Shown here one piece after another: positions 3,165 to 61,432 of a DNA stretch of 64,000 bases. A program made the translations under genes and the position numbers. Position 1 is the stretch's first letter. Each line of letters opens with the position of its first letter. The DNA lies in NCBI GenBank assembly GCA_030167145.1, contig CP126532.1, forward strand, positions 1,857,052 through 1,921,051. Reading direction: 5' to 3'. Under the pieces are notes generated by a model. It saw only the letters and a list, made by a program, of their open reading frames with translations. It was not told where the DNA came from and made no database searches. The DNA is from Ktedonobacterales bacterium. Lineage in GTDB: Bacteria > Chloroflexota > Ktedonobacteria > Ktedonobacterales > JADMIN01.

Positions 3165-3206
3165 AGCTCAACCCTGGTACGATGGTCCCTGGCAGCGCGG
3201 CATGCG

Positions 3207-15990: not shown

Positions 15991-16656
15991 ATGTTCGTGC
16001 GCTATCCGGCAGCCTACCGTGATGTGTGGGGGGAAGAGATAACCACCATTGAGAATGATAGTAAGCTCCTGCGGATGCGCGTGCGTGGCGCTGAATTCAC
16101 CGGTAGCTCGTTTGATAGCCTAGAAGCGCCACACGATGCGACTGAAGCGCAGCTATCCAGCTTCACGTTGATGACTTCGTACAAGATGCTTTGCTCGTGT
16201 TGTATTGACTGCGACATTCCTATCAAAGTTGTCGCTGGAAATGAATGCATGGAAGCCACCCTCCACATGCATCTTGACTTGGGGAGTCCACGACCAAATG
16301 GCCGCATTGAGCATGAATACCTACAGTTGACGCTCGCCATTGGCGATGCCACTTTCATTTCATCTGGCAAGAGTGGCGGCTGGTTCGAGGATGAACTAGG
16401 AGATATTCAACGTGCGTTGCCCGAAGGCATGTATACGAAATCCTGTATCAATTGCGCCTTCTCAGACTACTCAATATTTGGACAGGGCATGTTCGGCGAT
16501 ATGGCCTGCTTTCGCGACAATAGGCAGGCTTATTTGGCAGCGCGAGGTAAACGCGAGTTCATGCGCATTTGGGATACGAAGACCGAACAGGTGCAAGAGA
16601 CGTATCTCTGCCCCGAGTTTCAACGCCGTACACCCGGAACGGGCTATCGCGGTTGA
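15991..16656 (+). CDS. Cys-rich hypothetical protein in a lower-GC segment
   Basis: ATG at 15991 preceded by GGAGG. The sequence has many Cys (CSCCIDCD, CINCAFSDYS, CPEF). The segment is visibly more AT-rich than its flanks. Confidence 0.55.
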   Translation: MFVRYPAAYRDVWGEEITTIENDSKLLRMRVRGAEFTGSSFDSLEAPHDATEAQLSSFTLMTSYKMLCSCCIDCDIPIKVVAGNECMEATLHMHLDLGSPRPNGRIEHEYLQLTLAIGDATFISSGKSGGWFEDELGDIQRALPEGMYTKSCINCAFSDYSIFGQGMFGDMACFRDNRQAYLAARGKREFMRIWDTKTEQVQETYLCPEFQRRTPGTGYRG

Positions 16657-45273: not shown

Positions 45274-47385
45274 CTATTTGCCCTTCACGTAGCCCTTCGC
45301 GCGCAGTTGCTGGCCGATGGAGGACCAGTCGTATTTGCCGGTAAGCAGTTGTTGCCATGCTGCTTTGGCTTCTTTCCATGGTATCACTTCGCAGAAGGGG
45401 GCGATGTTGAGGAGCACGCCGTCGTTGAGGTCGGGGGTGAGGTAGTGGCGGGCGGCGCGGTCGAGGGCGTCGTGAAATTCGCGCAGGTCGGCGAGCAGGG
45501 TTTCTTGGCGGTCCAGGGCCTGGGCGGCGCGCCGGGCTTCGGGGCCGGTGGGTCCGGCGGCGGCTTTGGCGGCGTGTAGTTCGTCGAGGCGCTGTTCTTC
45601 GAGCCGGATTTTGGGCAGGAGGTGGAGGGTGAGGGCTTTGAAGATGAGGTCGGCGTCGAGGCGGTGGTAGTAGAGCCAGATGGCGTAGTGGCGTTTGGGG
45701 GATTGCAGCAGCCAGTAGATGGGGGCTTTGCGGCGGCTCTTGGAGTAGCGCGAGATGTGGAAGTCGAAGAAGAGGCGCGGGTTGCGGAGATATTCGCGCA
45801 GGTCGCGCACGCCGAGCAGCGCGCAGGCTTCGGCTTCGATGGCGCTGGCGCGGTCGCCCCAGAGGTGATCGAGGACGAGGCGGATGCGGCGCAGGAGGTC
45901 GTTGGGGGCGTCGGGGTCGTCTACGAGGATGCCGTCCCAGGCGATACCTAACCCCCCGGCCCCCTTCCCTGCGAGGGAAGGGGGAGTGGAGGGGGCGTCG
46001 AGCGTGGTGGGGTCGGGGAGGGTGATGGCGTTGGGACGGGTGCGGAGCCAGGCTTCGCTGGCGATGTGGTCGCGGGTGGCGGGGAGGCCGTCGTGGCCGA
46101 CCAGCGCGCCGGGGGCGCAGACGGGCAGCGGGGCGAAGGGGTCGGCAAGGCGCGGGGCGAGCGTGGGGTCGTGGGCGATACGCACGTCCCAGCGGCCAAA
46201 GGCGCAGCCGAGGGCGTACATGATGAGGTTGGCAGCTTCGGTGCGGGCGCGCTGAAGTCCGTTGCCGGCATTGGCGTTGGATTGAGCATCGCGCTCTTCG
46301 TCGCGGTCGTCGCCAGCTTCGTCGCCAGTCGCCACGGCTCCTACTTCCGCTGGCGGCGAAGATGCCTCGATATGGGCGCGATCATCGGGGGAGAAGCCGT
46401 AGAGGGCGTAGCAGCGGTCATCTATCTCGCGCTGGATGGTGGCGAGGCGCTGGACGCGGGCGGCGTCTGCGTTGGCGAGGAGGCTGAGGGCGGCGGCGAG
46501 GGTGGGCTGGGCGCGCAGGCGGACGAGCGCGGGGACGGTGAAGGGGTGGGTGACTTCGTCGTCGCGGTCAGATTCCCGCTTGCAGTCGTGGGCCTCGCGG
46601 GCGAGGGTGGCGAGGGTGTGCGCGTCATCGGCGCTGAGGTCGGGGACGGGGGTACGCTGGACGACACCGACTTCGTAGGAGCCGAACGCCATTTGCATCG
46701 AGAGCAGCGCGCCGAAAGAGGCTGAGTTGACCATGGCGAGCAACGCGAGGAGATCTGTCGGCTCGTCATCTGAGACGAATAGGGCCGGGCCTTTGTCGGC
46801 GAAGATGCAGCCAGCGGGCATGACGCGCACGCTGAAGCCGCCTTGCGTGCGGCGGGGGTAGGTGAGGCCGGGGCGGAAGTAGTAGTCGAGGGCCTCGGGG
46901 CGCTCTATCTCGCGACCGGGGCGTCCATAGAAGTTGCGGTAGGTGTGGCGCGATTCGTCCCAATCAGCAAGTAGGTGCATATCGTAGTAGAAGGGCGAAT
47001 AGCTACCGCCTTTCGCAAATGTTGCCCATCTGATGTTCCAGCTAACTGTAATGGGTAATACCTCCCACCACGTTCGAACACGTTGGAAATCATCGCCAGT
47101 GCTTGAGCCTCGGCGCGCCTCACGTCCATCCCCTTCGAAGGGCGGGAGTTCGGTGAAGAGTCGGCGTACATCCTCGCTGACCCAGTAGGCGAAGGGGGAG
47201 CCGGGGATCTGGCGGAAGGAGGCGGGGTCGAGGGTGAAGAGACCTAACCCCCCCAGCCCCCCTTCCCTACGTGGGAAGGGGGGAGTGGTGGCGGCGCGGT
47301 GGGCGGCGGTGGCGGCGCGTAGGGCGGCGGGTTTGTCGTCGGCGGCGAGGAGGCGGATGAAGGTGGTGGTGTGGGGCATGGTCAT
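45274..47385 (-). CDS. pglX: PglX-like protein, C-terminal half (specificity and C-terminal domains) of the split second paralog
   Basis: It is colinear with residues after the MTase core of the full-length paralog (FRQIPGSPFAYWV vs FDAIPGSPWVYQI; KAPIYWLLQSPKRHYAIWLYYH vs KRPIYWLLQSPKRGYGVYLFAE; DLNDGVLLNIAP vs ELDDGILINLAP). Confidence 0.8.
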   Translation of the reverse strand: MTMPHTTTFIRLLAADDKPAALRAATAAHRAATTPPFPRREGGLGGLGLFTLDPASFRQIPGSPFAYWVSEDVRRLFTELPPFEGDGREARRGSSTGDDFQRVRTWWEVLPITVSWNIRWATFAKGGSYSPFYYDMHLLADWDESRHTYRNFYGRPGREIERPEALDYYFRPGLTYPRRTQGGFSVRVMPAGCIFADKGPALFVSDDEPTDLLALLAMVNSASFGALLSMQMAFGSYEVGVVQRTPVPDLSADDAHTLATLAREAHDCKRESDRDDEVTHPFTVPALVRLRAQPTLAAALSLLANADAARVQRLATIQREIDDRCYALYGFSPDDRAHIEASSPPAEVGAVATGDEAGDDRDEERDAQSNANAGNGLQRARTEAANLIMYALGCAFGRWDVRIAHDPTLAPRLADPFAPLPVCAPGALVGHDGLPATRDHIASEAWLRTRPNAITLPDPTTLDAPSTPPSLAGKGAGGLGIAWDGILVDDPDAPNDLLRRIRLVLDHLWGDRASAIEAEACALLGVRDLREYLRNPRLFFDFHISRYSKSRRKAPIYWLLQSPKRHYAIWLYYHRLDADLIFKALTLHLLPKIRLEEQRLDELHAAKAAAGPTGPEARRAAQALDRQETLLADLREFHDALDRAARHYLTPDLNDGVLLNIAPFCEVIPWKEAKAAWQQLLTGKYDWSSIGQQLRAKGYVKGK
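45947..45986. repeat. Palindromic element (GGKG family), single copy, in-frame in the pglX C-half
   Basis: CCTAACCCCCCGGCCCCCTTCCCTGCGAGGGAAGGGGGAG, with a 10-11 bp hairpin core. It is translated as PPSLAGKGAGGLG. Confidence 0.85.
47243..47284. repeat. Palindromic element (GGKG family), single copy, in-frame in the pglX C-half
   Basis: CCTAACCCCCCCAGCCCCCCTTCCCTACGTGGGAAGGGGGGA, translated as PPFPRREGGLGGLG. Confidence 0.85.
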
Positions 47386-47451
47386 GGTGGTGTCCTGGTG
47401 TTAGAATGAGCGCAATCCAGTGATCTAGAGGGGGAAGGTTGGAGCCTTCGG

Positions 47452-47478
47452 CGGCCCTGTATAGGGCCGTTTTTGTTT
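47452..47478 (+). terminator. Plus-strand rho-independent terminator inside the BREX operon gap
   Basis: CGGCCCT, loop GTAT, AGGGCCG, followed by TTTTTGTTT on the plus strand, which is antisense to the operon. Confidence 0.5.
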
Positions 47479-47496
47479 ATGCGAGTTGTGACTGAT

Positions 47497-47928
47497 CTAG
47501 GGAATGTACCAGCCTCTACGCGAGCGGCGGCCTTTGCCATATTGCGCTGGGATGCCGATGCCTAGCTCGTCTTCGGTGCGGTGCGTGCGGTGGGTGCGGG
47601 TAATGTTGGTGTCGCGGTATTCGGTCTCCCAGTCGTGGTGTTTGTGGCGCGGTCGGTCAGGCTTTTTGCGCGTGCGCTTCGCCGGTGGTCGTGGCTGGGC
47701 GGGACGGGTGAACCAGTCGGTGATGCCTCGCGCGGGCTTGGTTTCGAGTCCGGCGGGCGTGGGCAGCCCAGGGCCGGTCACGTAGTAGAAGCAGTGTGTG
47801 CCTTTCGCTGGCTGCTGCCGGAGCTTGTCCGCGTGGGTGGTGGCTTCGGCGAGCGTCTTGAAGCTGGCGGCTAGCTTATGCTGGTCCCCGATGCGGCGGT
47901 AGACCGAGTATTTGCTCATGGTACCCAT
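47497..47928 (-). CDS. Small basic hypothetical protein inserted between the two pglX halves
   Basis: RBS GGAGAGGA precedes ATGGGTACCATG. 143 aa. The structured-looking N-terminal ~55 aa are followed by a strongly basic tail (KRTRKKPDRPRHKHH...GKGRRSRRGW). Confidence 0.6.
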   Translation of the reverse strand: MGTMSKYSVYRRIGDQHKLAASFKTLAEATTHADKLRQQPAKGTHCFYYVTGPGLPTPAGLETKPARGITDWFTRPAQPRPPAKRTRKKPDRPRHKHHDWETEYRDTNITRTHRTHRTEDELGIGIPAQYGKGRRSRRGWYIP

Positions 47929-47997
47929 CCTCTCCGCGAGTTCAAGGGCGAACGTCTGTCGCGATCATGCCAACAGTATGAGTATGGCGACGATAGT

Positions 47998-50358
47998 TCA
48001 TGGGTTTTTCTCCAGAACGTAGGCGGCGGTTTCGACCATGGCGGTATCGAGGACGCCGTAGCCGAGGTCGGCGAGGGCGATGGGGCGGGCTTCGGTGAGC
48101 AGGATGTCTTCGCGCCACTTCTGGAACGAGGTGAGGAAGAAGCCGGTGCGCGAGGTAATGGCGCCGAGGCGTCCGCTGGGTTCGAGCAGGGCGAGGCCGC
48201 GTTCGACGAAGGCGGCGTAAAGATCATTTTTGGTGCGGGGATAGGTTTTCTCGATGTAGGGCTTGGCGGGGGCGCTGGGTTCGCCGAACGGGGGATTCAT
48301 CAGTACGACGCTGTAGCACTTCTCCAGCAGTTCGATGAGCGCGAAGCCACGGGCGGCGTCCTCGGCGAAGAGGTGGCGAGTGTAGTCGTCGTCGCTGGTG
48401 GTGGCGTCTTCGGCAAAGCGGCGCAAGGCGGCGAGGACGCGCGGCTCGGCCTCGGTTTCGTAGAAGCGCGCGTCGGAGACACCTTCGTAGTTGAGCGTCT
48501 GCTGTTGTGGTGGCTGCCCCTGCGCGAAGAGGGTAAGCTGGACGTTGCCACCGCCGGTTCTGATCCACTCGCGTTTGGCGTTGGCGATCTCCTGGCGCAG
48601 GGCGACCTCGACCTGGAGCAGCGAGCCAGCCTCACCGGCGAGGCGCATCTCACCCCATATATCGCGGACAAAGGGGTCGAGCGCGGGCGGATCGAGGGTC
48701 TTGGTGAAGGCGTCGAGCAGGTCACGCTCGCCGGGCATTGGCTCGGCATAGACGAGATTGGCGCGGCGGATGGGCGGGCGCTGGTCGCGCGGGAGGCTGA
48801 GCGCGGCGTATTCGCGCTGGGCGCGCAGCCAGAGGGCGAGCGCGGCGATCTGGACGGCGCGGAGGTCAATATCTACGCCGTGCAGGTTGTGGCGTAAGAT
48901 CAGGGCGGGAACGGCGGCTTGATACGCGGGGAAGTCGCTGGCGAACTCGCTCTGGAGCGCGGGGCCGAGGTCATCATCTGCCCAGGCTTCGTGATAGATG
49001 CGCACGAGCAGGTCGAAGCAGTAGAGCAGGAAGTGGCCGCTGCCGCAGGCGGGATCAAGGATACGTAGTTCGCGGGGGTCGCGCTTGGCGCGATGGGGGA
49101 TGATTTCGACTTCGCGATTCCACGCCTCGCAGATGGCGCGATGGAGTGCCCGCCAGTAGTCCAGGTCTTTGCCCTCTGGCGTCTCGCCGAAGTGATGCCA
49201 GCGGCGCTGCTCAAAGAAGAGACAGAGGCGTAGCTCTTCGAAGCTGCCGTTGATATTGCCCGTCTCGACGTATTCTTGCTGCTTGTCGTTCGCAATGGAA
49301 GCGACCATATCGAAATCGCGCGCTTCCGCAGATGTATCGTGCGCCAGGTGTGTCTGGGCGTAGGCATAGCCGTCTACCGTGAGCGCATAGCGCATTATGG
49401 CGTCAACAGAGGTTGCGGCGGGATTGGGGCGGGTCCACAGCTCTCCACCACCCTCGCCCGGCATCACCCACGCGTCCTGTTCGGCATTGAACATGAGCGG
49501 CTCGTGCTGACCACGGCGCAGCCAGATGGGGTGTGGGGTGATGAGCATCGTTTCACAGAGGGTGGCGAGGCTGGTGTGGCCGTGGGTCATCTCCCACCAG
49601 AGGCGCCCAAGCGTGTTATCTGCCAGGAATTCGACGACGTAGCGCGGGGTGTAGAACTGATTGCGGAAGGCTAACTCGTAGCTGTTGCGCGGGGCCTGGC
49701 TGGCTTTGCGCGCCTCGTCGCGTAGCTCTTTGGGGGTGAAGTACTGGTAAATCCAGCCGATGGTCTCGTCGGCGTCCCAGACGCTGGCTAGCTCGGCATC
49801 GTTGAGGAGGGCGAGCACGTCTTCGAGCACGCGCTGTGGCGGGAAGAGCCGGTTGGCGGGGTCGTGCGGCGAGAAGAGGGCGGGCAGCTCGCTGGCCAGG
49901 GTCTGCCCAGTCCATTCGAGGAAGTGGCGATAGGCGAGATCCTGGCGGCCAGCGGACCAGAGGGTTTCTTCGCCGGGATTGTCGGCGAGATAGAACTTGA
50001 AGCCGTTGCTGTTGAGGCTACGGGAGACGGTCTCGCGGATGAGCTTGCGGCGTTCGAGCAGCTTGTAGGCGCAGAGGCGATTGAGATGCGTGAAGGCGAC
50101 TTCGCGGATAAGCTGAGCGACGGCATCGTGCGCGGAGAAGCGGCGGGCGCCGAGGTGGGCGAGATACCGCACGACCTGCGCGCGATAGGCGAGGTCGGCG
50201 GGGGAGAGGTGGGCCATGCGCGCGGCTGGCTCGACTGCGCCGTGGCGGTGGATGCCAAACTGGCCTTCGAGTAGCTCGGCGACGGTGTCTTCGAGCAGCT
50301 TGCGGCACTGTGTGACGGCGAGGCGCAGGGTGTTGCGGATAGATTTATCGAGTGTCAT
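47998..50358 (-). CDS. pglX: PglX-like N6-adenine methyltransferase, N-terminal half of the split second paralog
   Basis: N-terminal helical domain (REVAFTHLNRLCAYKLLERRKLI; DETIGWIYQYF). MTase motif I is ILDPACGSGHFLLYCFD and motif IV is VLMNPPFGEPS. It ends right after the MTase core (AAYVLEKNP*). Confidence 0.85.
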   Translation of the reverse strand: MTLDKSIRNTLRLAVTQCRKLLEDTVAELLEGQFGIHRHGAVEPAARMAHLSPADLAYRAQVVRYLAHLGARRFSAHDAVAQLIREVAFTHLNRLCAYKLLERRKLIRETVSRSLNSNGFKFYLADNPGEETLWSAGRQDLAYRHFLEWTGQTLASELPALFSPHDPANRLFPPQRVLEDVLALLNDAELASVWDADETIGWIYQYFTPKELRDEARKASQAPRNSYELAFRNQFYTPRYVVEFLADNTLGRLWWEMTHGHTSLATLCETMLITPHPIWLRRGQHEPLMFNAEQDAWVMPGEGGGELWTRPNPAATSVDAIMRYALTVDGYAYAQTHLAHDTSAEARDFDMVASIANDKQQEYVETGNINGSFEELRLCLFFEQRRWHHFGETPEGKDLDYWRALHRAICEAWNREVEIIPHRAKRDPRELRILDPACGSGHFLLYCFDLLVRIYHEAWADDDLGPALQSEFASDFPAYQAAVPALILRHNLHGVDIDLRAVQIAALALWLRAQREYAALSLPRDQRPPIRRANLVYAEPMPGERDLLDAFTKTLDPPALDPFVRDIWGEMRLAGEAGSLLQVEVALRQEIANAKREWIRTGGGNVQLTLFAQGQPPQQQTLNYEGVSDARFYETEAEPRVLAALRRFAEDATTSDDDYTRHLFAEDAARGFALIELLEKCYSVVLMNPPFGEPSAPAKPYIEKTYPRTKNDLYAAFVERGLALLEPSGRLGAITSRTGFFLTSFQKWREDILLTEARPIALADLGYGVLDTAMVETAAYVLEKNP

Positions 50359-51170
50359 CAGGAAACACCCCTCAGCGTGACGACGAGGTCGGCGTGTTGG
50401 GCGTGTTCGGCCACGAGTTCATCGAGGGCGAGGCAGATGTGCTTGATGGTATCCACGGATTGCGTGGCCCAGGAATAGCTGATCTCCTGCACCTTGCCGT
50501 CGGGGCTGGCTTGTGCGCGGTCGGCGCGGTGGACGATGTCGTTGCGGCGGCGAGTGGTTTCGTCAATGACGCTCATCAGCTCTTTCTTGTCGCGCTGGAG
50601 CTTGGCGGCGATCTGATCCCAGGGCTTTTCGAGGCTGAGCAGCGCGCCGACAACATGCACACCCTTGCGCGAACTGAGGTATTTGAAGGAGGTCTGCGCG
50701 AGGATGCGGTTGGCGATGAAGAGCGGGGCGTCGGGATCGCCGAGCAGCCGGAGGGTCTCGGAGAGCGAGAAGGTGAGGTCTTTGAAATACTCTTCGATGC
50801 TGGGATCGGGTGGCAGGAAGTCGCGCCCGCGCGCGGCGATCACCTGGGGGAGATTGGCGCGGAGCACGGATGGCAAGTAGGCGTCGAGTGCGGTGCAAGC
50901 GGCGACGACCGATTGGCGCAGCAGGTTGGCGAGCGACTGGCGTCGCAGGGCGCTCTTGGGGATCTGGGCGCTCTCGCGGACGAGGCCGACGAAGATCTCG
51001 TTGTAGATCAGCATCAGGTCTTCGTCGTGCTGGGCATGGACGATGCCGGCCAGCGCGGTGACCAGCTCGCCATCGGTCTGGATGGTCTGGCAGTCGAGCA
51101 GGCGGTAGACGCGCAGCAGCAGTTCGGCGGGGCGCATGGTGTCTTCGAATACCTGGCGTGGACTCGTCAC
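50358..51170 (-). CDS. HEPN-like (RiboL-PSP-type) protein embedded in the BREX operon
   Basis: Alpha-helical 270 aa protein with an Rx4H motif (ETTRRRNDIVHRAD) in the C-terminal third. Its stop overlaps the pglX-N start (TGATG). It lies 23 nt downstream of brxC. Confidence 0.65.
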   Translation of the reverse strand: MTSPRQVFEDTMRPAELLLRVYRLLDCQTIQTDGELVTALAGIVHAQHDEDLMLIYNEIFVGLVRESAQIPKSALRRQSLANLLRQSVVAACTALDAYLPSVLRANLPQVIAARGRDFLPPDPSIEEYFKDLTFSLSETLRLLGDPDAPLFIANRILAQTSFKYLSSRKGVHVVGALLSLEKPWDQIAAKLQRDKKELMSVIDETTRRRNDIVHRADRAQASPDGKVQEISYSWATQSVDTIKHICLALDELVAEHAQHADLVVTLRGVS

Positions 51171-51193: not shown

Positions 51194-54100
51194 CTATTCG
51201 ACGATGATGCTGGCGCCCTGGGCGAGCAGCTTGAACAGTTCGTCGCGGAGCTTGTCGAGCGCGGCGTTCACGGCGGCTTCGGTGTCCAGGGAGTCGGGAA
51301 AGAATTCGGCGGCGCGCACGTGCGAGATGGCGCTCTGGCCGCGCTCCGCCGTATCGGGCGCAAGGGTCAGCTCCTGGATGCGCGCGAGCGCCTGGGATTT
51401 GAGGCCAGCGAGGGCGAGCAGGTCGGATTCGATTTGGCTGAGCGTCGCGTGGCAGTGCGGGCAGACGCTGGCCGTATCGTCGAGATGAAGACCTTCGATG
51501 CAGGCGCGCTGGGTCAGGGGATCGAGCAGCGCCGGACGGGAGGCTTCGGGCACATTGGGCCAGTTGGCGCTGCCCTTGATCGCGTCAATCGCGGCATCGA
51601 AGTGACTGTGCCGTTTCGCGTGCAGCCCCTCGTAGACATCGGCGTAGGCGGCGGCGAGCGCGCGGGTCATGTCGCGCAGGTGGGGCAAGCGCTCGTAGAG
51701 CGTGCTGTCACCGAGGATGTGCTGTATTTCCGCGGCTTTGTCGTCCAGCCCGTCGGTTGCGCCACGGGCTTGCAGGATGGGCCATTGCTGGTCGAGGACA
51801 CGCCGGGCGTCGCGGACGGTGGCGACGATGTGCTGCTCGGTCAGCGCTTCGCGGATGCGCCGGGCCTGGGCGCGCAGCTCTTTGAGGGAGGTGCTTTCGC
51901 CGGCGAGGGTGCGCACGCAATCGTCTGAGGCGGCGTTCTGGATGGCGGTGAGGGACTGGTAGTAGTCGTCGAGCAGGTCCATGCCGGGGAGGTCGTTGGC
52001 GCGGACCTCGGCGCGGGCGGGCAGCAGGAGCGCAATCTCCGCGTTGGCCAGCTTCTTCAGGCTTTCGGCGATGGCGCCTTCTTCGACATCCACCTCATCG
52101 CCGGTGAGGGTCTCGAAGCCACGCACGGCGGCGGTGAGGGTGCGCAAATCAATAGATTCGCGCGGGGTGAACGAGGCGCTGCGGAAGGCGGGGTTGGAGG
52201 TGAGCGGAGTGCGGCAGAGTGGGTCTTGCGCGTTGCGGTAGCGCCGGCCCTGATAGGTCACCTCGACGGCGCCCGCGCGCAGCAGCAGCGCCAGCACCAG
52301 CTTGATGACGTCGAGTTCCCAGCCGTAGGAAAGGCCGGTGAAGTGGGCCTCCAGCTCTTTGCCGGTGACGCGGTTGCCGTAGGAGTGCTCTTTCTTGAGA
52401 TAGTCGAGCACCTCTTTGGCGATCTCGGCGTGGACATGGGGGACGAACTTCGCGCCCTCTTTGGTGACGAGGTTGAGGCCGTGCTCGCCACCGTAGAATA
52501 CTTGCGGGAGCGCGTTGAGGTTGGCGGCTTTGAGCACTTCGTCGGCTTCGTTGCCAGTGAGGCCGGGGCGAGCGCCCATCTCGAGCTTGGGATAGAGGTC
52601 GGGGACGACGGCGTTGAAGAGATTTCGGAAGATTTCGGCGAGCGATCTGCCGAGGTCGGAGGCGTCTTTGGAGATGCCGCGAAAGATGCTCTGGCCGCGT
52701 GCGAGCGCCGCCTCCAGCTTCTCGCGCAGGCGACTCTGGTAGCGCGCTTGCTCGCGTTTCTCGGCATCGAGGAGGGGGGTAAGCTCGGCGGCACGCTCGC
52801 CCTGCGCGCCCGCCTGGCTATATTTGGCGATCATCTGGCTGGAGGCATGCACCTGATTGATCAAGGTGTCTAACTCGGCATCCAGGGCGAAGATCCAGTA
52901 GATGTCGTTGGTGTGGTCGCCCATGCGGCTCTCGCTGCGGGCGTCTTCCAACCGGCTGGCAAGCTCGGTCGGCGCGTCGGCGACGCGGAGGGTGAGCGGA
53001 ATATCGCCCGTCGCAAGGCGCACGTCGTCCATGGTCAGTCCGACCTTGAAGGTGCGCTTGAGCGGGTGCTGGTAGGTGAGCAGTTTTTGGTCGGAGAAGA
53101 TTTTTAGCAGGGACTCGCGTTGAATCTCGTTGCGCTCGCGGGGTTTGGGTTCGAGATACTGCTTGCGCTCGGTATCCCAGTTCTTCTCCTGGGCGGTGAG
53201 CAGTTTCCAGCCTTCTTCGGTATGGCGGACGAACTGCGCTTGCTCCAACCTGCGGATCGCCGCTTGTACCTGCGGCAGCGGCGCGGACGCGCCCACCTGA
53301 TCCACCAGCACGGCGGCGACGTTGGCGTCGGTGCGAGGCAGGTCGCGCACGAATTCGAGCAGGCAGAGCGCCTTGGCGACGCGGGCGGCCCAGCCGGCAT
53401 CGTCGCGGTCACTCTTGAAGCGTTCGGTGATGTCGCTGATGTCTTTCTGCTTCTCAGACGAGAGACTGCCCTCGACCAGCTCGTAGATCAGATCGAGGGT
53501 GACGAGCCGCCCGACGGGCTGCCGCGCGAGATCGGTGCGCGGCGCGGTGAGCATGGAGTGCGCTTGTTTGATGATGGTGCGGTTGCTGCCGCTGATGTGG
53601 CGCGGCGCGCCGGGTTGGGAGCGGATGCCAGTCATGATATCTATCGAGAGGTCAATGTAGTGCGGCAGGTAGGGGTAGAAGCGCACGAAGTCGTCTTCGC
53701 GCACCTCACTCTTGCGGCTGGTGCGCTCCAGATGGCAGGAGGTGTTGAGCTGGCCCTGCGCCTGGGCGAAGATCTGGCGCAGTTCGGGGACGGCGCTGGG
53801 CTTCTTATCGAGCACGCGCTTGGTGGCGACTTCGCTGATGTCGGCGGGGGTGAGGTCCACGCGATGGCGGAAGCGGTCCTGCACCATGGCGAGCTGCACG
53901 CGGCGCGAGTCGAGGGCGGAGACGACTTCTTCGAGTTTCTCCTGGCTGGTGACGATGATCCAGATGGGGGCGATGGCCTGGCGGGCGCGGATGCGGTTCT
54001 TGCTCTCCTGGCCGAAGTGTTCGACCACGGCGCGCAGATCGTTGAGCTTGTCGGCGCTCTGCGAGACATACTGGCCCACTTCGTCTACGATGAAGGTGAG

Positions 54101-54862
54101 CGCTTTGCCGGGGCGGCGGCGCGCCATTAGCTCGAAGGCGCGATCCACCAGCTTTTTCGTGTTGATGTCTGCGGTACGCCCAGCCAGTGACCGCGCCCAA
54201 GAGTCGGCGGCGGGGTAGGTGCGTGGGTCGAGTTCGTGCAGCGCGGCACTGGCGCGATTCAGCTTCGTTGCGCCAGTGCGGACAACCTCCCAGGGTGGGC
54301 CGCCGTGCGCCTGAGCACAGGCGACGAATGCGTCGAGCTGGCCATCGCGCTCAAGCTCAATTTCTAGCTCGGCGATATCGAAGTCTTCGGCGTAACCCAG
54401 CGAGCGCAAGAGCTGGGCGTAGAGAAGCTCAGTGATGCGCTCGTTATTGGTACGTGCGGAACGCTCGACCATGACATCGAACATGATGACTTCGGTGGGG
54501 ATGCGCGCGGTGATGAAGTCTACCAGTTGCGAGATGGCGGGGTCGTCAAGCTGCTGCTTAAAGAGGTCGGCGGCGCGGTGGCCGAGCACGGTGCGATTGG
54601 CGAGGACGTAGCCGAGGTTTTTGGCGAAGGAGGATTTGCCGGAGCCGAAGAAGCCAGAGATCCAGATGCCGACGCCTTCGGTGAGATCGGTGGGCGCGTC
54701 GGCCATGGCTTTGAGCAATCCGTGATAGTGTTCGCGGATGCGTTTGGTGGCGACGTATTCGGTGAGTTCACTGTAGACGGTCTTTTCGTCTTCCTGGGTC
54801 ACCTTGATGATTTCTTCGATGTGCTGGTTCAGGTCGCGGCTGAGCAGGTCTTGTATGTGCAT
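51194..54862 (-). CDS. brxC: BREX P-loop ATPase BrxC/PglY
   Basis: 1222 aa. Walker A is GIWISGFFGSGKSSFAKNLGYVL and Walker B-like is LTFIVDEVGQY. Size and position are typical of BrxC. Confidence 0.9.
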   Translation of the reverse strand: MHIQDLLSRDLNQHIEEIIKVTQEDEKTVYSELTEYVATKRIREHYHGLLKAMADAPTDLTEGVGIWISGFFGSGKSSFAKNLGYVLANRTVLGHRAADLFKQQLDDPAISQLVDFITARIPTEVIMFDVMVERSARTNNERITELLYAQLLRSLGYAEDFDIAELEIELERDGQLDAFVACAQAHGGPPWEVVRTGATKLNRASAALHELDPRTYPAADSWARSLAGRTADINTKKLVDRAFELMARRRPGKALTFIVDEVGQYVSQSADKLNDLRAVVEHFGQESKNRIRARQAIAPIWIIVTSQEKLEEVVSALDSRRVQLAMVQDRFRHRVDLTPADISEVATKRVLDKKPSAVPELRQIFAQAQGQLNTSCHLERTSRKSEVREDDFVRFYPYLPHYIDLSIDIMTGIRSQPGAPRHISGSNRTIIKQAHSMLTAPRTDLARQPVGRLVTLDLIYELVEGSLSSEKQKDISDITERFKSDRDDAGWAARVAKALCLLEFVRDLPRTDANVAAVLVDQVGASAPLPQVQAAIRRLEQAQFVRHTEEGWKLLTAQEKNWDTERKQYLEPKPRERNEIQRESLLKIFSDQKLLTYQHPLKRTFKVGLTMDDVRLATGDIPLTLRVADAPTELASRLEDARSESRMGDHTNDIYWIFALDAELDTLINQVHASSQMIAKYSQAGAQGERAAELTPLLDAEKREQARYQSRLREKLEAALARGQSIFRGISKDASDLGRSLAEIFRNLFNAVVPDLYPKLEMGARPGLTGNEADEVLKAANLNALPQVFYGGEHGLNLVTKEGAKFVPHVHAEIAKEVLDYLKKEHSYGNRVTGKELEAHFTGLSYGWELDVIKLVLALLLRAGAVEVTYQGRRYRNAQDPLCRTPLTSNPAFRSASFTPRESIDLRTLTAAVRGFETLTGDEVDVEEGAIAESLKKLANAEIALLLPARAEVRANDLPGMDLLDDYYQSLTAIQNAASDDCVRTLAGESTSLKELRAQARRIREALTEQHIVATVRDARRVLDQQWPILQARGATDGLDDKAAEIQHILGDSTLYERLPHLRDMTRALAAAYADVYEGLHAKRHSHFDAAIDAIKGSANWPNVPEASRPALLDPLTQRACIEGLHLDDTASVCPHCHATLSQIESDLLALAGLKSQALARIQELTLAPDTAERGQSAISHVRAAEFFPDSLDTEAAVNAALDKLRDELFKLLAQGASIIVE

Positions 54863-54863
54863 A

Positions 54864-55085
54864 CCTATCCCCCTGGCCCCCTTCCCTACGAGGGAAGGGG
54901 GGAATGTACCTATCCCCCTGGCCCCCTTCCCTACGAGGGAAGGGGGAAGACGGACCTATCCCCCTGGCCCCCTTCCCTACGAGGGAAGGGGGGAATGTAC
55001 CTATCCCCCTGGCCCCCTTCCCTACGAGGGAAGGGGGAAGACGGACCTATCCCCCTGGCCCCCTTCCCTACGAGGGAAGGGGGAA
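54864..55085. repeat. Tandem array of five GGKG-family palindromic elements (45/46 bp units alternating)
   Basis: CCTATCCCCCTGGCCCCCTTCCCTACGAGGGAAGGGGG(GAATGTA/AAGACGGA) x5 fills the whole gap between the DUF559 stop (55089) and the brxC ATG (54862). The last unit supplies the GGGGGA Shine-Dalgarno of brxC. Confidence 0.9.
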
Positions 55086-55088
55086 GTG

Positions 55089-55487: not shown

Positions 55488-55597
55488 ATCGCTGTATTCC
55501 TCTCTTATACTGCCCTTATACCGCCCTTATACCGCCCTTATACTGGATGGTCTTGACCTGTTTGGACTAGCGCATCGCAGCCTGTATCGGGATGCGC

Positions 55598-58500
55598 TCA
55601 CCTCTCCTCCCCCTTCCCTCCCAGGGAAGGGGGCTGGGGGGTTAGGTCCGTCTCCCCCTTCCCTCCCAGGGAAGGGGGCTGGGGGGTTAGGTCCGTCTCC
55701 CCCTTCCCTCCTAGGGAAGGGGGCTGGGGGGTTAGGTCCGTCTCCCCCTTCCCTCCTAGGGAAGGGGGCTGGGGGGTTAGGTTCTGCGCGATGGCGTAGC
55801 TCTGGTTCGCGCGGCAAGCGGCGAGGACGCGGTCGGGCCAGTAGCGCATGGCGGTGCGGGACCAGTCGTAGTCGCCGCGCTCCAGCGCCTGCCAGCATTG
55901 CCGGGGTTCGGTGGACCAGGCGGGCATGAGGGTATGAAGCGGGGCGAGGTTGATGAGGATGCCGTCGTCTAGCTCTGGCGCCCAGCCGGTCGTCTCGCCG
56001 CGCGCGTTGGGCTGGGTGGTGACGGCGGCGAGGGCTTTGTCGAAGGCTTCGAGGTCGTTGAGGGTGGATTCGAGCGCTTCGAGGGCGCGTTCGGCGCGGC
56101 GGCGCTCGGCGCCCTGGGGCAGCGCGGGCAGGCGCTGGCGCTGCTCGGCGATGTCGCGCCGGACGGAGGCGATGCGGCCGCCCAGGTAACGGCTGCCGCG
56201 CAGCAGGTGCAGGGTGTCGCGGGTGACGCATTCGGCGAAGAGGTAGACGCCGTAGCCGCGCTTGGGCGATTGCAGCAACCAGTAGATGGGGCGCTTACGA
56301 TAGCGTTTGTGGTGGTCTTTGAAGAAGTCTTTGGCGAGCCAGTCGTGCAGCGGGCGCCCGCCAGTGGCGGTGGCGAGCAGGCCCTCGACCTTATCGTCGC
56401 CGAGCAGGACTTCGAGCACGTGGGTGACGCGGGCGGCGAGGTCGTCGGGGTGGCCAGGATCGAGTACGGCGATGGGGGACCCCTCCCCCAGCCCCTCCCC
56501 CACAGGGAGAGGGGAGTTGAGAGTGAGGGGGGTAATGGCGAGGCTGGCGGCTGGGGGTGTGCCATCGGGCGCAGGGAGCGGTGCGACGCCGTTGCCAAGC
56601 GCGCCAAGGATGCCGGGGGAGAAGCGACCGAGGGCGATGCCGACGGCGTAGCTGACCCAGCGCGCGGCGAGGGATGACCTATCCCCCCCGGCCCCCCTTC
56701 CCTGGGAGGGAAGGGGGGAGAGAGAGGCATGCGCGCCGTTTGCGCAAGATTCGCCATCTGCGCTATTGATGGCATCCGCGTCCGCGTCCGCTTCTTCGTA
56801 TTTCTCCGCGTCACGATCATCGCCAGCCAGCGCCGCCGCCTCGTCTTCCTCCTCCCCCTCACGCGCCCCACCTGCTAGCGCCGCCGCCACCTCGTCTTCC
56901 TCCTCCCCCTTCCCTCCCAGGGAAGGGGGCTGGGGGGATAGGTCCGCTTCGATGGCGGCGCGGTCTGCGGGGCTGATGTCGTAGAGGCGGTAGACTTCTT
57001 CGTTTATTTCGCGCTCGATGGCGGCGAGCTCGGCGTGACGGGCGGCGACGCGGGCCAGACCATCGGGCCAGGCGGGCGGGGCGACGAACTCGTAGGTGGT
57101 CTCGTCTTCGGCGCTGTCGGCGCGGGCGAGGGCTATCGCCCGCTCGACGAGGCCGCGCAGGGTGTCGCTGGACACGGTGGGGATGGGGAGACGCTTCAGA
57201 TCGCCCAGGTAAAAGTGAAACGTTGGATTCAGCACCGCAAGTAAGTGATTAGCAACTGACGAGTTCAATATGCCAAGCAGCTTATATAAAATGCTGCTCT
57301 GCTCAGAGAAAATACAGTTGCCTGCATGATCAAAGAGAAAGCCAGCAGGCATGTAGCGTATGCTTAAACCTTTGGATGTGAGATCAGTGAAAGTCAGTCC
57401 TTGGTGGAAATAGAGTTGTCTGCTTGGAAGTTTGTTGCCTCTTTCGGAAAGAATGCGGAAGTGGGGCAAGTCGTAAGCAATTACAAATTCTTGGTTACCC
57501 CACCAGCGTCGGAACTCACCGCCCTTCATATGTGGAAACCACCGCTTCCCTGTGTACCAGGCTTCCTCGGCAGATGTGCAACCGAATCCAATACTAGAAA
57601 TGCCTACCTCCCACCAGAATCGCAAGAAACGCGAATTTCCTGATGTTGCCAGCCCTTGTCGCGGATTAGCACTATTGACAAGTTTAGGCAAATTAGCGAA
57701 GAGTGATCGTAGAGACGGGGTTATTTGGTAGACCCAGGGGGAGCCGGGGATGGCATCGAAGTCGCGCTGGCGGTAGGCGTAGACGGCGGGGTCGGTTGCG
57801 CCAGCCTGGAAGGCGGCGACGGCACGCTCGAAGCCACGGCGCTTGGCTTCGGCGTCGGGTTCGCGGACGAGGCGGATATACCTGCCGGTGGCGTGGTCGC
57901 GGCGGGCGGCGTCGGGTTCGGCGCGGAGGACGAAGAGGGTAGTGTTGACTATCTCGCCGTCGATCTCGGCAAAGGCGCGCGGGCCGACGTGGATCATCGT
58001 TTCGATGGCGGTCAGGTGGCGCAGCTTGTCGCGCAGCGCTTCGTAGCTGCTGATGAACATGAACGACTGCTGTGTAATCATCGCCAGCCGTCCGCCGGAG
58101 GCGAGCATCTGTGCGCAGCGGTCAATGAACGCGGCGTAGAGGTTGTCTTCGGATGCTGGAAATTCCACTTCCAGATATTTGCGCATGGTGGCTGACATGT
58201 TGTCGCTACCCATATAAGGCGGGTTGGCGGCGACGACATCGTAGCGGCGGAGCATCACGTCGAGCAGGCGCATGCCCTTGACGGCTTCGCCGGCGAAGTA
58301 GGCCTGGTCTATGCCTTCGCGGGCCTGCTGGCGGGCGAATTCGTCGAAGGCCTGGACGATCTGCGCTTCGAGGATGCCCCAGTATTCGTCGTCGTCGGCG
58401 TCTTCTTCGAAGAGCGTGCGCAGCTCGGGGAAGGGCAGGCGCCCCTGGCCTTCGAGGCGGAAACGCTGGCGTTCGGCCAGGATGATGGCGCGAATCTCGT

Positions 58501-59953
58501 CTTCGAGCCGCAGCAGCGAGCCAAGCTGGTTGGCGTCGCGCAGGCGCTGCCAGACGGCGCGAATCACGCGCTCGTAGATCGGGCGCGAGAACTTCGCCGT
58601 GTCAATAAACGCATCCAGACGCTTGCCGTTGAGCAGCAGCACATCGGCGCAGGCGAGGTTGCTGTGGCGGATGGTGACGTGAGGGTTAAGCGCGGCGGCT
58701 TTGAGATAGAGCGTCAGCGCGGAGAGCTGCACGGCGCGCAGGTCAATATCTATGCCGAAGAGGTTGTGCTCGACGATGGCGGCGGGAATCTCACTGGCGT
58801 CGGGCACGGGTGGCGTCGCGGGCCAGCCTGGCTCACCGGCGCGCTCGATCTCCTCCTGATACATCGCCGCGAAGAGATCGAAGGCGACCAACCCAAAGTG
58901 CATCGTGCCGCAGGCCGGATCCAGCAGCGTCATCTCCCGCACCGACCTCATTCCCTCTCCCCCCTTCCCTCCTAGGGAAGGGGGGCTGGGGGGGTTAGGT
59001 TCCGCTCCCCCCTTCCCTCCTAGGGAAGGGGGGCTGGGGGGGTTAGGTTCCGCTCCCTCCTTCCCTCCCAGGGAAGGGGGGCTGGGGGGGTTAGGTTCCG
59101 GGACGAGCGAGGTGAGGGAGTCGCGCAGGCGGCTGTCGGGGTGCATCTGGAGCCAGAGGCGGCCAAGGGAGTTTTCGACCAGCGCGCGGACAATCCAGCG
59201 CGGGGTGAAGAGTTGGGTTGCGGCGGGAATCTCGCTGGCGGTGATCTTCGCGCCTTTGTTCAGCCGGGCAAAGACCTCGGCTTTCTCCTGCTCGTTGAAA
59301 TACTGATAGATCCAGCCGATGGTTTCGTCGTCGGCCCAGGCGGGGGCAACGTCGGCGGCGTTGACCAGCGCGAGCAGGCTGGCGAGGGCGCGGGGGCGCG
59401 GGCAGAGGCGGCTGGGGAGGTCGGTGGGGTCGAAGAGCGCGCGAATCTGGCTGGCCATGGCGGCGCAGAGGTGCAGCAGGTAGTGGCGATAGGCGGTGTC
59501 GCGCGGGCCTTCGCCGAGGGCATCGAGCGGCAGCGAGCCAGATTCATAGCGGGCGTAGTCGTCTTCGTGGCCCGGCTCGGTGAGCCAGAGCATGAAGCCG
59601 CCGGACTGCTGGCCCTTGCCGACGCTGGCCTTGATGAGCTTGCGGGCTTCGAGCATCTTGAACGCGGAGACGCGGTTGAGCCAGGTGTAGGCGACCTCTT
59701 TGGTGAGCTTGGCGACGGCCTCGCGCGGGGTGAGTCCGGCGGTCTTTTCGTCGGCCAGCAGACGTTCTAAGCGGGCACGGGTGTCGCGGGCGTCGGATAG
59801 CTGCTGGATGGCGGGGAGGGTATCGGCTGGCTCGAAGCGGCCATCGCGATGCAGGCCATAGACGCCTTCGAGGAGGTCGGTTGTCTCGGTGGTGAGCAGG
59901 TGGCGGGCGTCGAGGGTGAGGTCGTGCAGGCGGGTGCGGAGCGTACTTTCCAT
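55598..59953 (-). CDS. pglX: Full-length PglX-like N6-adenine methyltransferase located between brxB and brxC
   Basis: ATG at 59953 (MESTLRTRLHDL); the longer ORF to 60520 overlaps brxB and is discounted. KEVAYTWLNRVSAFKMLEARKLI, DETIGWIYQYF. Motif I is LLDPACGTMHFGL and motif IV is VAANPPYMGSD. C-terminal KRPIYWLLQSPKRGY. It contains at least 9 in-frame palindromic element copies. Confidence 0.85.
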   Translation of the reverse strand: MESTLRTRLHDLTLDARHLLTTETTDLLEGVYGLHRDGRFEPADTLPAIQQLSDARDTRARLERLLADEKTAGLTPREAVAKLTKEVAYTWLNRVSAFKMLEARKLIKASVGKGQQSGGFMLWLTEPGHEDDYARYESGSLPLDALGEGPRDTAYRHYLLHLCAAMASQIRALFDPTDLPSRLCPRPRALASLLALVNAADVAPAWADDETIGWIYQYFNEQEKAEVFARLNKGAKITASEIPAATQLFTPRWIVRALVENSLGRLWLQMHPDSRLRDSLTSLVPEPNPPSPPSLGGKEGAEPNPPSPPSLGGKGGAEPNPPSPPSLGGKGGEGMRSVREMTLLDPACGTMHFGLVAFDLFAAMYQEEIERAGEPGWPATPPVPDASEIPAAIVEHNLFGIDIDLRAVQLSALTLYLKAAALNPHVTIRHSNLACADVLLLNGKRLDAFIDTAKFSRPIYERVIRAVWQRLRDANQLGSLLRLEDEIRAIILAERQRFRLEGQGRLPFPELRTLFEEDADDDEYWGILEAQIVQAFDEFARQQAREGIDQAYFAGEAVKGMRLLDVMLRRYDVVAANPPYMGSDNMSATMRKYLEVEFPASEDNLYAAFIDRCAQMLASGGRLAMITQQSFMFISSYEALRDKLRHLTAIETMIHVGPRAFAEIDGEIVNTTLFVLRAEPDAARRDHATGRYIRLVREPDAEAKRRGFERAVAAFQAGATDPAVYAYRQRDFDAIPGSPWVYQITPSLRSLFANLPKLVNSANPRQGLATSGNSRFLRFWWEVGISSIGFGCTSAEEAWYTGKRWFPHMKGGEFRRWWGNQEFVIAYDLPHFRILSERGNKLPSRQLYFHQGLTFTDLTSKGLSIRYMPAGFLFDHAGNCIFSEQSSILYKLLGILNSSVANHLLAVLNPTFHFYLGDLKRLPIPTVSSDTLRGLVERAIALARADSAEDETTYEFVAPPAWPDGLARVAARHAELAAIEREINEEVYRLYDISPADRAAIEADLSPQPPSLGGKGEEEDEVAAALAGGAREGEEEDEAAALAGDDRDAEKYEEADADADAINSADGESCANGAHASLSPLPSQGRGAGGDRSSLAARWVSYAVGIALGRFSPGILGALGNGVAPLPAPDGTPPAASLAITPLTLNSPLPVGEGLGEGSPIAVLDPGHPDDLAARVTHVLEVLLGDDKVEGLLATATGGRPLHDWLAKDFFKDHHKRYRKRPIYWLLQSPKRGYGVYLFAECVTRDTLHLLRGSRYLGGRIASVRRDIAEQRQRLPALPQGAERRRAERALEALESTLNDLEAFDKALAAVTTQPNARGETTGWAPELDDGILINLAPLHTLMPAWSTEPRQCWQALERGDYDWSRTAMRYWPDRVLAACRANQSYAIAQNLTPQPPSLGGKGETDLTPQPPSLGGKGETDLTPQPPSLGGKGETDLTPQPPSLGGKGEER
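55603..55782. repeat. Tandem array of four GGKG-family elements (45 bp units), inverted relative to 54864-55085
   Basis: TCTCCCCCTTCCCTCC(C/T)AGGGAAGGGGGCTGGGGGGTTAGGTCCG x4. It is read in-frame as the C-terminal tail of pglX (LTPQPPSLGGKGETD x4). Confidence 0.9.
56678..56720. repeat. Palindromic element (GGKG family), single copy, in-frame in pglX
   Basis: CCTATCCCCCCCGGCCCCCCTTCCCTGGGAGGGAAGGGGGGAG, translated as SPLPSQGRGAGGDR. A related but distinct palindrome CCCCTCCCCCACAGGGAGAGGGG lies at 56475-56516. Confidence 0.85.
56905..56945. repeat. Palindromic element (GGKG family), single copy, in-frame in pglX
   Basis: CCCCCTTCCCTCCCAGGGAAGGGGGCTGGGGGGATAGGTCC, translated as LSPQPPSLGGKGEEE. 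Confidence 0.85.
58955..59100. repeat. Tandem array of three GGKG-family elements (48 bp units), in-frame in pglX just upstream of MTase motif I
   Basis: CTCCCCCCTTCCCTCCTAGGGAAGGGGGGCTGGGGGGGTTAGGTTCCG x3, translated as PNPPSPPSLGGKGGAE x3. Confidence 0.9.
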
Positions 59954-60057: not shown

Positions 60058-60639
60058 TCACCCGTAGACTTTGACGCGATAGTTGCCCATGGCCTCGCGG
60101 TTCTTGAGATCCATGAAGCGCAGGCCGACGGTACCCTCGAGTGTGCCGGGGTAGAAGAGGATGGCGGGGACGGCGGTGCGGCGCTGCATCTCGTCGAGTA
60201 GCCGCGACATCTGGTAGATGGAGGGCGCCATGGCTGAGGCGCGGGTGAGGAAGACGAGGTCGCGCTGCGGATCGAAGGGGCGCATGCGCTCGGCCAGGGT
60301 ATCGGGCAGGGGCCGCCAGAAGGGATGGGAGAGATAGGTCGTCGCCTGCTCCTCGGCGGCGGCGAAACCACTCATGCGCTCTAGCTCTACCAGCGCATCC
60401 AGTCCTTCGGTCTGCGCGATGGTTTCCCAGAGCAGGCCAGCGAGCGAGATGGTGTGAACGCGCTTGCCGGTCTGTGCGAGACTGTCGGCGAGCAGCCGGG
60501 CGCGGCGGCGCATATCCCACTCGGCCTCTGGCTCGTAGCGCAGGATGGCGAACGGGAGGTCGGTATGGTTGGCGATGCGCATCGGCGTGGCGGTGAGGTC
60601 GCGTTCGAGCAGGTCAAAGCGGTCTTTGAGTGAGAGCAT
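60058..60639 (-). CDS. brxB: BREX protein BrxB (DUF1788)
   Basis: 193 aa with LPFAILRYEPEAEWDMRRR, VPAILFYPGTLEG and GNYRVKVY, matching the BrxB pattern. It sits directly after brxA. Confidence 0.85.
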   Translation of the reverse strand: MLSLKDRFDLLERDLTATPMRIANHTDLPFAILRYEPEAEWDMRRRARLLADSLAQTGKRVHTISLAGLLWETIAQTEGLDALVELERMSGFAAAEEQATTYLSHPFWRPLPDTLAERMRPFDPQRDLVFLTRASAMAPSIYQMSRLLDEMQRRTAVPAILFYPGTLEGTVGLRFMDLKNREAMGNYRVKVYG

Positions 60640-61432
60640 GCGCGTACTCCTCTAGCGAACGGGTAGGAAACTCAACGCGGATGACCCGTCCAGCGGCTTG
60701 ATAGGTGAGCAGGCGCTCCTGGTGCGCTTCGAAGAAGAGCAGTTCGACGGCGGGCTGCGCGAGGAAGAAAAGCTGCCAGGATGGGTCGTGCAGCAGCTTC
60801 GCGCCGGACGGCTGGTCGCGGCTGAGCAGCAAGGCGAGCAGGGCGAAGGCGGGTGGGGCAAGGTAGATGGGGCCGAGCCGCTTCGCGACCTTGCCTTGCA
60901 GGATGCCGAAGTCGCGCAGCGTTGCCAGCAGCCCGACTGCCAGGCGGCGGATGGTGACATCGGACCATGGGCGCTGTGTTTTGCCAGCGGCCATCTGTTC
61001 GTTGAGCCAGCGCACCACGTCTTCGGGTCGCACGAGGGTGTGCCCACGGGCGAGCATCGGCCCCAGCAGATCCAGCACCACATCGCGGAGCAGCGGGTCG
61101 GTGCGTGTCGCCAGCACGTACAAGATGGGGTCCAGGAGCGAACTGGGGGCACTAGAACTGGAACTGGCAAGGGTCACGAGCATCCGCAGGATCTCGGGGT
61201 CGGTGAGATAGCGCTCGCGGAAGATATCGAGCATCTCGGGGATGCGGGAACGCGAGGCCTTGGCGAAGATGTTGTCGGCGCGCATGCGTTCCAAGTTGGC
61301 GGGCACAGTGGCGGAGAGATCCCAATGGGCGAGCATGAGTTTGGTATCGGGTAGGAGCGCGCCGACGTGATTGATGCGGGTGGAATAGCGTTGGGAGTGC
61401 TGGGAGTGCCCGGATTTAGCCGTGACTGCCAT
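60614..61432 (-). CDS. brxA: BREX protein BrxA (DUF1819)
   Basis: 272 aa and the first gene of the operon. YSTRINHVGALLPDTKLMLAHW...ADNIFAKASRSRIPEMLDIFRERYL is typical of DUF1819. 26-nt overlap with brxB. Confidence 0.8.
   Translation of the reverse strand: MAVTAKSGHSQHSQRYSTRINHVGALLPDTKLMLAHWDLSATVPANLERMRADNIFAKASRSRIPEMLDIFRERYLTDPEILRMLVTLASSSSSAPSSLLDPILYVLATRTDPLLRDVVLDLLGPMLARGHTLVRPEDVVRWLNEQMAAGKTQRPWSDVTIRRLAVGLLATLRDFGILQGKVAKRLGPIYLAPPAFALLALLLSRDQPSGAKLLHDPSWQLFFLAQPAVELLFFEAHQERLLTYQAAGRVIRVEFPTRSLEEYAHALTQRPL

Follow-up and report, generated by a model that had tools for sequence, protein, structure and literature searches.

In type 1 bacteriophage exclusion (BREX) systems the adenine methyltransferase PglX/BrxX is required for defence and modifies the fifth adenine of a non-palindromic 6-bp motif. 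Here we describe pglX1, a gene of this family located in a BREX type-1 locus within a 64-kb stretch of DNA from a Ktedonobacterales bacterium (contig CP126532.1; the whole stretch is henceforth referred to as the window). The segment of pglX1 that encodes the target recognition domain (TRD) is a sharply bounded AT-rich island whose phylogeny is incongruent with that of the rest of the gene.

The limits of the TRD are known from two structures. The cryo-electron microscopy (cryo-EM) structure of E. coli BrxX in complex with DNA places the domain at residues 651-837, with base contacts made by K681, D684, R751, Q784, G785 and N823 and an intercalating wedge formed by V766 and L822 (PMC11842806); in the crystal structure of Salmonella PglX the TRD comprises residues 662-849 (PMC11341690). 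Single substitutions in the TRD alter the recognized motif (PMC11842806, PMC11341690). Exchange of specificity domains has precedents: allelic substitution of TRDs is documented in Type IIG genes, and restriction-modification genes are often atypical in GC content and codon usage (PMC2853133). Within PglX itself, Lacticaseibacillus rhamnosus and Brevibacterium casei offer documented cases in which the middle region is exchanged (PMC9881135).

pglX1 lies between brxB and brxC at positions 55598-59953 and, like the whole locus, is on the minus strand. It encodes an intact BREX-1 adenine methyltransferase and specificity protein of 1451 amino acids (aa), starting MESTLRT. The protein matches profile NF033452 over positions 3-1209 of 1210 with 802.5 bits (cutoff 500), and in the Protein Data Bank (PDB) it matches BrxX and PglX at E ~1e-105 (8zek/9ewz for E. 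coli BrxX). Methyltransferase (MTase) motif I (LLDPACGTMHFG, GxG) and motif IV (NPPY, in the context ANPPYMG) align with the BrxX motifs; PF07669 (Eco57I) and PF02384 are matched as well. PglX1 is identical to OJF49_001790 from a Ktedonobacterales metagenome-assembled genome (MAG).

A preliminary description of this DNA had drawn attention to an AT-rich patch within pglX at 57195-57735 and had taken it for the target-recognition region: both observations are borne out. The GC content of these 541 bp is 0.470, compared to a window mean of 0.639 (standard deviation of 541-bp segments, 0.041), which makes this the lowest-GC stretch of its length in the 64 kb; 0.013% of such segments are equally low. 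When two boundaries are fitted by likelihood, the island extends over 57210-57731 (aa 742-915) and has a GC content of 0.46, compared to 0.675 for its flanks (log-likelihood gain 35.8). Codon usage gives a closely similar extent (57194-57733, minus strand, aa 741-920): along the gene, GC content at third codon positions (GC3) falls from ~0.8-0.9 to 0.45-0.58 over aa ~745-905. When stratified by amino acid, GC3 in the TRD is 0.446 against 0.835 expected from the rest of the gene, a highly significant deficit (Mantel-Haenszel z = -11.4, p ~4e-30), and codons rarely used by the other BREX genes account for 20% of the island compared to 4% elsewhere. The domain is also enriched in F, N, S, I and W residues; nevertheless, because the GC3 deficit survives amino-acid stratification and is accompanied by rare codons, the island exceeds an effect of amino-acid composition and is a property of the DNA.

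Both borders of the island are abrupt and both fall within conserved motifs. In bins of 20 codons a GC3 of 0.95 (aa 721-740) gives way to one of 0.40 (aa 741-760) at the 5′ border, and at the 3′ border 0.55 (aa 901-920) is followed by 0.90 (aa 921-940). The 5′ border is held by the anchor FDAIPGSPWVY (aa 732-742, 57728-57760, minus strand) at the hinge that joins the MTase domain to the TRD; here P739, W740 and Y742 do not vary among 32 homologs, I735, G737 and V741 are nearly invariant, and the GC3 step is at aa 740/741. The 3′ border is held by GDLKRLPIP (aa 917-925, 57179-57205, minus strand), in which G917, D918 and P923 are near-invariant among the same number of homologs and the step is at aa 920/921. 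The peptides by which the patch had originally been delimited, NSANPRQGLATS and HFYLGDLKRLPIP, are located at 57641-57676 and 57179-57217, respectively.

The AT-rich island is the TRD of PglX1 almost end to end. Within the best-aligned stretch, which scores 230 bits and takes in the C-terminal MTase domain and the TRD (PglX1 aa 533-958 against BrxX 463-866), aa 736-958 of PglX1 align with BrxX 653-866, and the island (aa 742-915) stands opposite BrxX ~659-825. By homology to BrxX 651-837 the TRD of PglX1 thus comprises aa ~734-928 (57170-57754, minus strand), and since the BrxX domain is defined by structure, the assignment is correct. Structure prediction agrees: an AlphaFold model of aa 722-938 has as its best PDB match the BrxX-DNA complex (9ewz_C, E 7.5e-10, TM score 0.51), followed by Salmonella PglX, and the fold search over the TRD model gives 30-36% identity to BrxX/PglX structures. 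The model was obtained with a 108-sequence alignment (pLDDT confidence score 73.9); a 16-sequence alignment of the TRD alone gave 39.6. The residues of PglX1 that correspond to the BrxX base contacts K681, D684, R751, Q784, G785 and N823 are Q766, A769, P843, H876, A877 and H913, and those that correspond to the wedge residues V766 and L822 are L858 and F912. This mapping was made by counting through the BrxX alignment, which reproduces the published numbering for K681, D684, K719, R751, Q784 and N823. Because all six contact positions differ, PglX1 is expected to recognize a different motif.

Evidence for exchange of the domain comes from comparisons among homologs. The closest relative (P0002), whose contig carries the same dual-pglX locus, shares 79% identity with PglX1 over the backbone and 50% over the TRD. 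Among all 741 pairs of 39 homologs, TRD identity is essentially uncorrelated with identity of the N-terminal domain (NTD), the MTase domain or the C-terminal domain (CTD) (Spearman 0.03-0.12), whereas in the same pairs NTD identity correlates with that of the CTD (0.61) and of the whole MTase domain (0.58). Mismatched pairs occur in both directions: some pairs share 89% identity in the backbone and 40% in the TRD, others 52% in the backbone and 68% in the TRD. For pairs of the latter kind, in which the TRD is the more similar part, fast divergence alone is not sufficient. The two subdomains of the TRD also assort independently of one another (Spearman 0.13, 741 pairs). The history of the TRD is therefore not congruent with that of the rest of the gene. 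Neither of the two outcomes that the preliminary description had named as refuting its reading, an insignificant GC difference or a congruent phylogeny of the segment, was thus observed.

The comparison of pglX1 with its ortholog adds a further detail. The first part of the TRD (aa 741-820) is 55-80% identical between the two, yet GC3 in this part is 0.40-0.65 here and 0.75-0.90 in the ortholog, in which the dip is limited to aa ~821-920. The differing extent of the dip suggests separate events with different breakpoints, and thus points to separate TRD replacements in the pglX1 and ortholog lineages.

From these observations we infer recombination with an AT-richer donor and a consequent change of motif: the island probably originated by cassette replacement of the PglX1 TRD. 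A TRD-coding segment with foreign codon usage would have recombined into a GC-rich resident pglX, with crossovers within the conserved motifs FDAIPGSPWVY and GDLKRLPIP that bracket the domain. The resident NTD, MTase domain and CTD would have been retained, and the incoming segment would not yet have drifted toward the composition of its host. Such a replacement should alter both self-methylation and the range of phages that are excluded.

A number of observations weigh against this explanation. The search for a donor comprised a word-indexed search of 5.8 billion proteins, an exhaustive search of 1.84 billion representatives and a search of the JGI metagenomes, among which Ktedonobacterales are sparsely sampled; no donor TRD was found, the best match anywhere being 62-64% identical (P0006/L085), and no collection searched held the same or a near-identical TRD in another backbone. 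With the TRD alone as query, the word-indexed search yielded just 19 short proteins, and the sole TRD match in a scan of viral contigs is 29% identical. No recombination machinery is encoded among the neighbouring genes that were tested, and the window has no silent cassette and no repeat flanking the island. In addition, the TRD is AT-shifted family-wide. Across 38 loci from GTDB (L001-L082) the mean observed-minus-expected GC3 of the TRD, stratified by amino acid, is -0.17; the shift reaches z < -3 in 23 of 38 genes and is significantly positive in none, and the TRD's GC content is below that of its flanks in 34 of 37 loci. A second, independent set, of 51 metagenomic loci (L086-L165), gives a mean of -0.089, with a lower TRD in 42 of the 51. 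The corresponding mean GC3 shifts of control blocks are +0.04 (NTD), +0.07 (CTD) and -0.06 (last part of the MTase domain). Moreover, TRD GC tracks host GC with a slope of ~0.8-1.1 (37-51 loci) and the shift occurs in low-GC hosts too, which means that part of the signal may reflect a domain-specific process rather than a single transfer.

Because a milder shift is present throughout the family, composition alone is no proof of transfer. The preliminary description had read the compositional dip as a sign that the specificity module was swapped horizontally: replacement of the module is supported, by the incongruence among homologs, but the dip in itself is weaker proof than was assumed. The size of the shift is nonetheless far from uniform. 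It ranges from none to -0.42 across homologs; the value for PglX1 (-0.39) ranks with the largest in the set of 39 genes, and 0 of the 51 independent metagenomic homologs reach -0.30. A matched control block made up of aa 545-718, in the C-terminal portion of the MTase domain, is AT-shifted at z < -3 in 9 of 38 genes; the equivalent block of BrxX holds the loop that reads the sixth base (PMC11842806). The range of the shift, the shifts in the control block and the extreme value in PglX1 together lead us to favour episodic exchange over constant pressure, although relaxed codon selection in a fast-evolving TRD may contribute. The three nearest TRDs have GC contents of 0.48-0.51 in loci of 0.33, 0.44 and 0.57; a single common pool of TRDs at ~48-50% GC was considered as a general rule and rejected, given that TRD GC follows host GC. 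When similar TRDs in different backbones were compared for GC3, the sample held no near-identical pairs. Literature searches on low-GC TRDs returned nothing specific.

The same observations bear on an alternative in which the TRD was inherited vertically and evolved in place, very fast, under phage-driven diversifying selection, with AT-biased mutation lowering GC3 by way of locally weakened selection, or weakened biased gene conversion, for G/C-ending codons. In its favour are the family-wide shift that tracks host GC, the failure of the searches to turn up a donor, and the slightly reduced GC3 of other variable stretches of the gene (e.g., aa 1021-1080). We nevertheless consider evolution in place unlikely. 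The GC3 steps at both ends of the island are completed inside 20 codons, the conserved first part of the TRD is already foreign in GC3, and some pairs of homologs are closer in TRD than in backbone. Furthermore, the dip varies in size and extent, which together with the control-block shifts suits episodic events better, and in PglX1 it lies far beyond the family mean.

It might also be supposed that AT-richness is itself selected, being kept for a function at the level of DNA or RNA: slowed translation that lets the MTase domain fold ahead of the TRD, a promoter or regulatory site inside the gene, or a hotspot for recombination. The concentration of rare codons, the start of the island at a domain hinge and the recurrence of the shift across the family are in keeping with such a role. 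However, the island covers the whole domain and extends well beyond a linker, and the GC-rich homologs L017, L073, L076 and L014 are among those without any dip, so that the dip is not needed for function. An internal promoter or terminator was rejected, as neither a sigma-70-like promoter nor a terminator-like site is present on either strand of 56700-58300; we regard selected AT-richness as very improbable. Scarcely any weight can be given to programmed diversification, whether it took the form of a diversity-generating retroelement or, as known for pglX of L. rhamnosus, of a shufflon that inverts silent cassettes. PglX is strongly enriched among the targets of programmed inversion (odds ratio ~21; PMC9881135) and the locus does hold two pglX copies, but a blastn search of the 64 kb found the island at no second site, the two TRDs share 27% identity and lie on one strand, and neither a recombinase nor a reverse transcriptase is encoded among the neighbouring open reading frames (ORFs) that were tested. 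Nor is the TRD flanked by inverted or direct repeats: those that were found are unrelated 45-nt palindromes elsewhere. Both forms of programmed diversification were accordingly rejected for the window. An embedded gene on the opposite strand was rejected as well, there being no plus-strand ORF of at least 150 aa within the island. Replacement of the TRD as a cassette from an AT-richer source therefore remains the explanation that we prefer.

The second pglX of the locus is split. pglX2-N (47998-50358, minus strand, 786 aa) encodes the NTD and MTase domain and matches NF033452 with 383 bits up to profile position 610, ending at the hinge between MTase domain and TRD; it is 31-35% identical to PglX1. 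pglX2-C (45274-47385, minus strand, 703 aa) encodes the TRD and CTD, matches NF033452 positions 656-1208 with 304 bits, and is 30% identical to PglX1 aa 732-1365. An ORF of 140 aa (47497-47919) that belongs to no known family lies in the gap between the two (47386-47997). The pglX2 ortholog of locus L001 is split at the same place, with a 357-aa gene between the halves; the split is thus conserved, and pglX2, with one MTase-like (M-like) and one specificity-like (S-like) ORF, the latter comprising TRD and CTD, is probably not a pseudogene.

pglX2-C carries an AT-rich island of its own. A shorter patch had previously been proposed at the position in this paralog equivalent to the TRD of pglX1: the patch is real (46928-47104, minus strand, aa ~94-153) and aligns with the pglX1 TRD, but it covers the first TRD subdomain only, corresponding to aa ~771-840, in the first half of the domain. 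GC content within it is 0.50 against 0.69, and GC3 is 0.49 against 0.84 expected (z = -6.6). In the first subdomain pglX2-C is 30-55% identical to its L001 ortholog; in the second, compositionally normal subdomain identity is 65-85%. The same process has probably operated here at a finer scale, with only the first subdomain being compositionally foreign. The TRDs of PglX1 and pglX2-C are 27% identical to one another, and at the five of six base-contact positions that can be compared all five differ (Q766/R92, A769/S95, H876/D, A877/K and H913/S236). As judged from these differences, the two paralogs are likely to recognize different motifs, as the preliminary description had supposed, and a locus with two PglX proteins could constitute a dual-specificity variant of BREX.

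Loci with two PglX proteins are found elsewhere (L001/L002, L005, L008, L019, L029, L033 and L040), and the order brxA-brxB-pglX1-brxC-(HEPN)-pglX2 is also present in the closest relative, in several Chloroflexota MAGs and in one Gemmatales MAG. A phrase search of a recent survey of BREX diversity returned no mention of a second or split PglX.

The remaining genes of the locus, all on the minus strand, are as follows. brxA (60614-61432) and brxB (60058-60639) pass the curated cutoffs of PF08849 (BrxA, 81.6 bits) and PF08747 (BrxB, 48.4 bits), respectively; brxC (51194-54862) is above that of NF033441 (BrxC, 712 bits), and brxL (40476-42512) is well over the cutoff of TIGR02653 (BrxL, 955.6 bits). 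The matches of pglZ (42542-45157) to PglZ families are significant, but all are under the curated cutoffs (best 179.6 bits vs 400). Gene order is non-canonical in that pglX1 stands ahead of brxC, and all five partner genes (brxA, brxB, brxC, pglZ and brxL) are on one strand. Between brxC and pglX2-N is an ORF of 270 aa (50358-51170, minus strand) that narrowly misses the cutoff for RiboL-PSP-HEPN (PF18735, 25.5 bits against 28.4). This HEPN-like ORF has a counterpart of 78% identity in L001 and is also found in L008, L019 and L040; it may be an accessory effector of the dual-PglX variant. After the island of pglX1 the next-lowest GC stretches of the window are at 16035-16575 (0.505), 33371-33911 (0.527) and, inside brxL, 41277-41817 (0.536).

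A G/C-rich palindromic element of 45-48 nt, with the core CCCCCTTCCCTnnnAGGGAAGGGGG, has been inserted many times in both orientations, at 58943-59083, 56888-56932, 56676-56720, 55592-55775, 47241-47285, 45943-45987 and 54860-55086. Elements within both pglX genes keep the ORFs open and add PPSLGGKG-like peptide units, of which PglX1 has three in tandem between NTD and MTase domain and four at its C-terminus; the P0002 ortholog is without these tandem blocks. The palindromes were considered as borders of a TRD cassette and rejected, since the nearest are ~260 bp downstream (56888-56932) and ~1.2 kb upstream (58943) of the island. Stand-alone ORFs encoding a PglX TRD occur in other genomes. The one in L084 (region 519-4343) has 302 aa and stands ahead of a 23S_rRNA_IVP-family gene, which in turn precedes an ORF of 336 aa, an AAA_15/AAA_21 ATPase, pglZ and brxL; that of Desulfothermus naphthae (L083, 10001-10810) is 269 aa long, has a GC content of 0.48 and lies in a transposase-rich region of 0.33 GC.

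The above analyses show that the boundary of a BREX specificity module can be read from DNA composition, in agreement with the TRD of the BrxX cryo-EM and Salmonella PglX crystal structures. FDAIPGSPWVY and GDLKRLPIP are natural crossover points for engineered TRD swaps intended to retarget BREX, and exchange of half a TRD is seen to happen. It is conceivable, if rather doubtful, that the island of pglX1 is one episode of a continuing, family-wide traffic in whole and half TRD cassettes that move by way of an AT-richer pool (e.g., mobile elements), with turnover outpacing amelioration, which would account for an AT-shifted TRD in most homologs irrespective of host GC, and the two PglX proteins of this locus being retargeted independently to give a dual-motif BREX. 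Should this prove true, composition alone could locate specificity modules and roughly date their retargeting, the family-wide AT shift would offer a cheap means of finding specificity determinants in poorly characterized defence genes, and dual-motif BREX would be an architecture that recurs in Chloroflexota. The by-products of the analysis – the family-wide AT shift, half-TRD exchange and the recurrent dual-PglX arrangement with a split at the hinge – may outweigh the main finding.

In its organization PglX1 is like BrxX of E. coli HS and PglX of Salmonella D23580 (9EWZ, 8ZEK, 8C45 and 8Q56): an NTD, a gamma-class N6-adenine MTase with NPPY, a TRD and a CTD. The wedge positions keep the hydrophobic character that they have in BrxX (L858 and F912), whereas the base-contact positions are all different. 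The genomic context is likewise that of E. coli and Salmonella BREX, with brxA, brxB, brxC, pglZ and brxL, but pglX1 stands between brxB and brxC rather than after brxC, carries in-frame repeats of 45-48 nt, and is accompanied by a second, split pglX.

As in the reassortment of TRDs in Type I HsdS and in Type IIG/IIL enzymes (the MmeI family), a variable specificity domain within conserved brackets appears to have been swapped independently of the catalytic core. What differs is that exchange here concerns a BREX PglX and that its compositional mark is limited to a domain, or half of a domain, and not to a whole gene; also, unlike allelic TRD substitution in Type IIG genes, neither an allelic partner nor a donor for the PglX1 TRD was found in the collections searched. 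A further parallel is the phase-variable PglX of L. rhamnosus, with its nested inversions, and of B. casei (PMC9881135), in which, as here, the TRD-containing middle is the exchanged unit and the N- and C-termini are constant. Unlike these systems, the window (by scan and by the ORFs tested) holds no silent cassettes, inverted repeats or recombinase. In B. casei, too, PglX can be split into two coding sequences at a border of the variable region: there the split is at the C-terminal end of that region, whereas in pglX2 it is N-terminal to the TRD, separating the MTase domain from TRD and CTD. Given that TRD exchange is established in Type I systems, in Type IIG enzymes and in phase-variable PglX, the locus provides a clear new example rather than a new mechanism. 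Taken together, the data support the view that PglX1 is a clear and compositionally marked case of TRD replacement in a BREX PglX.

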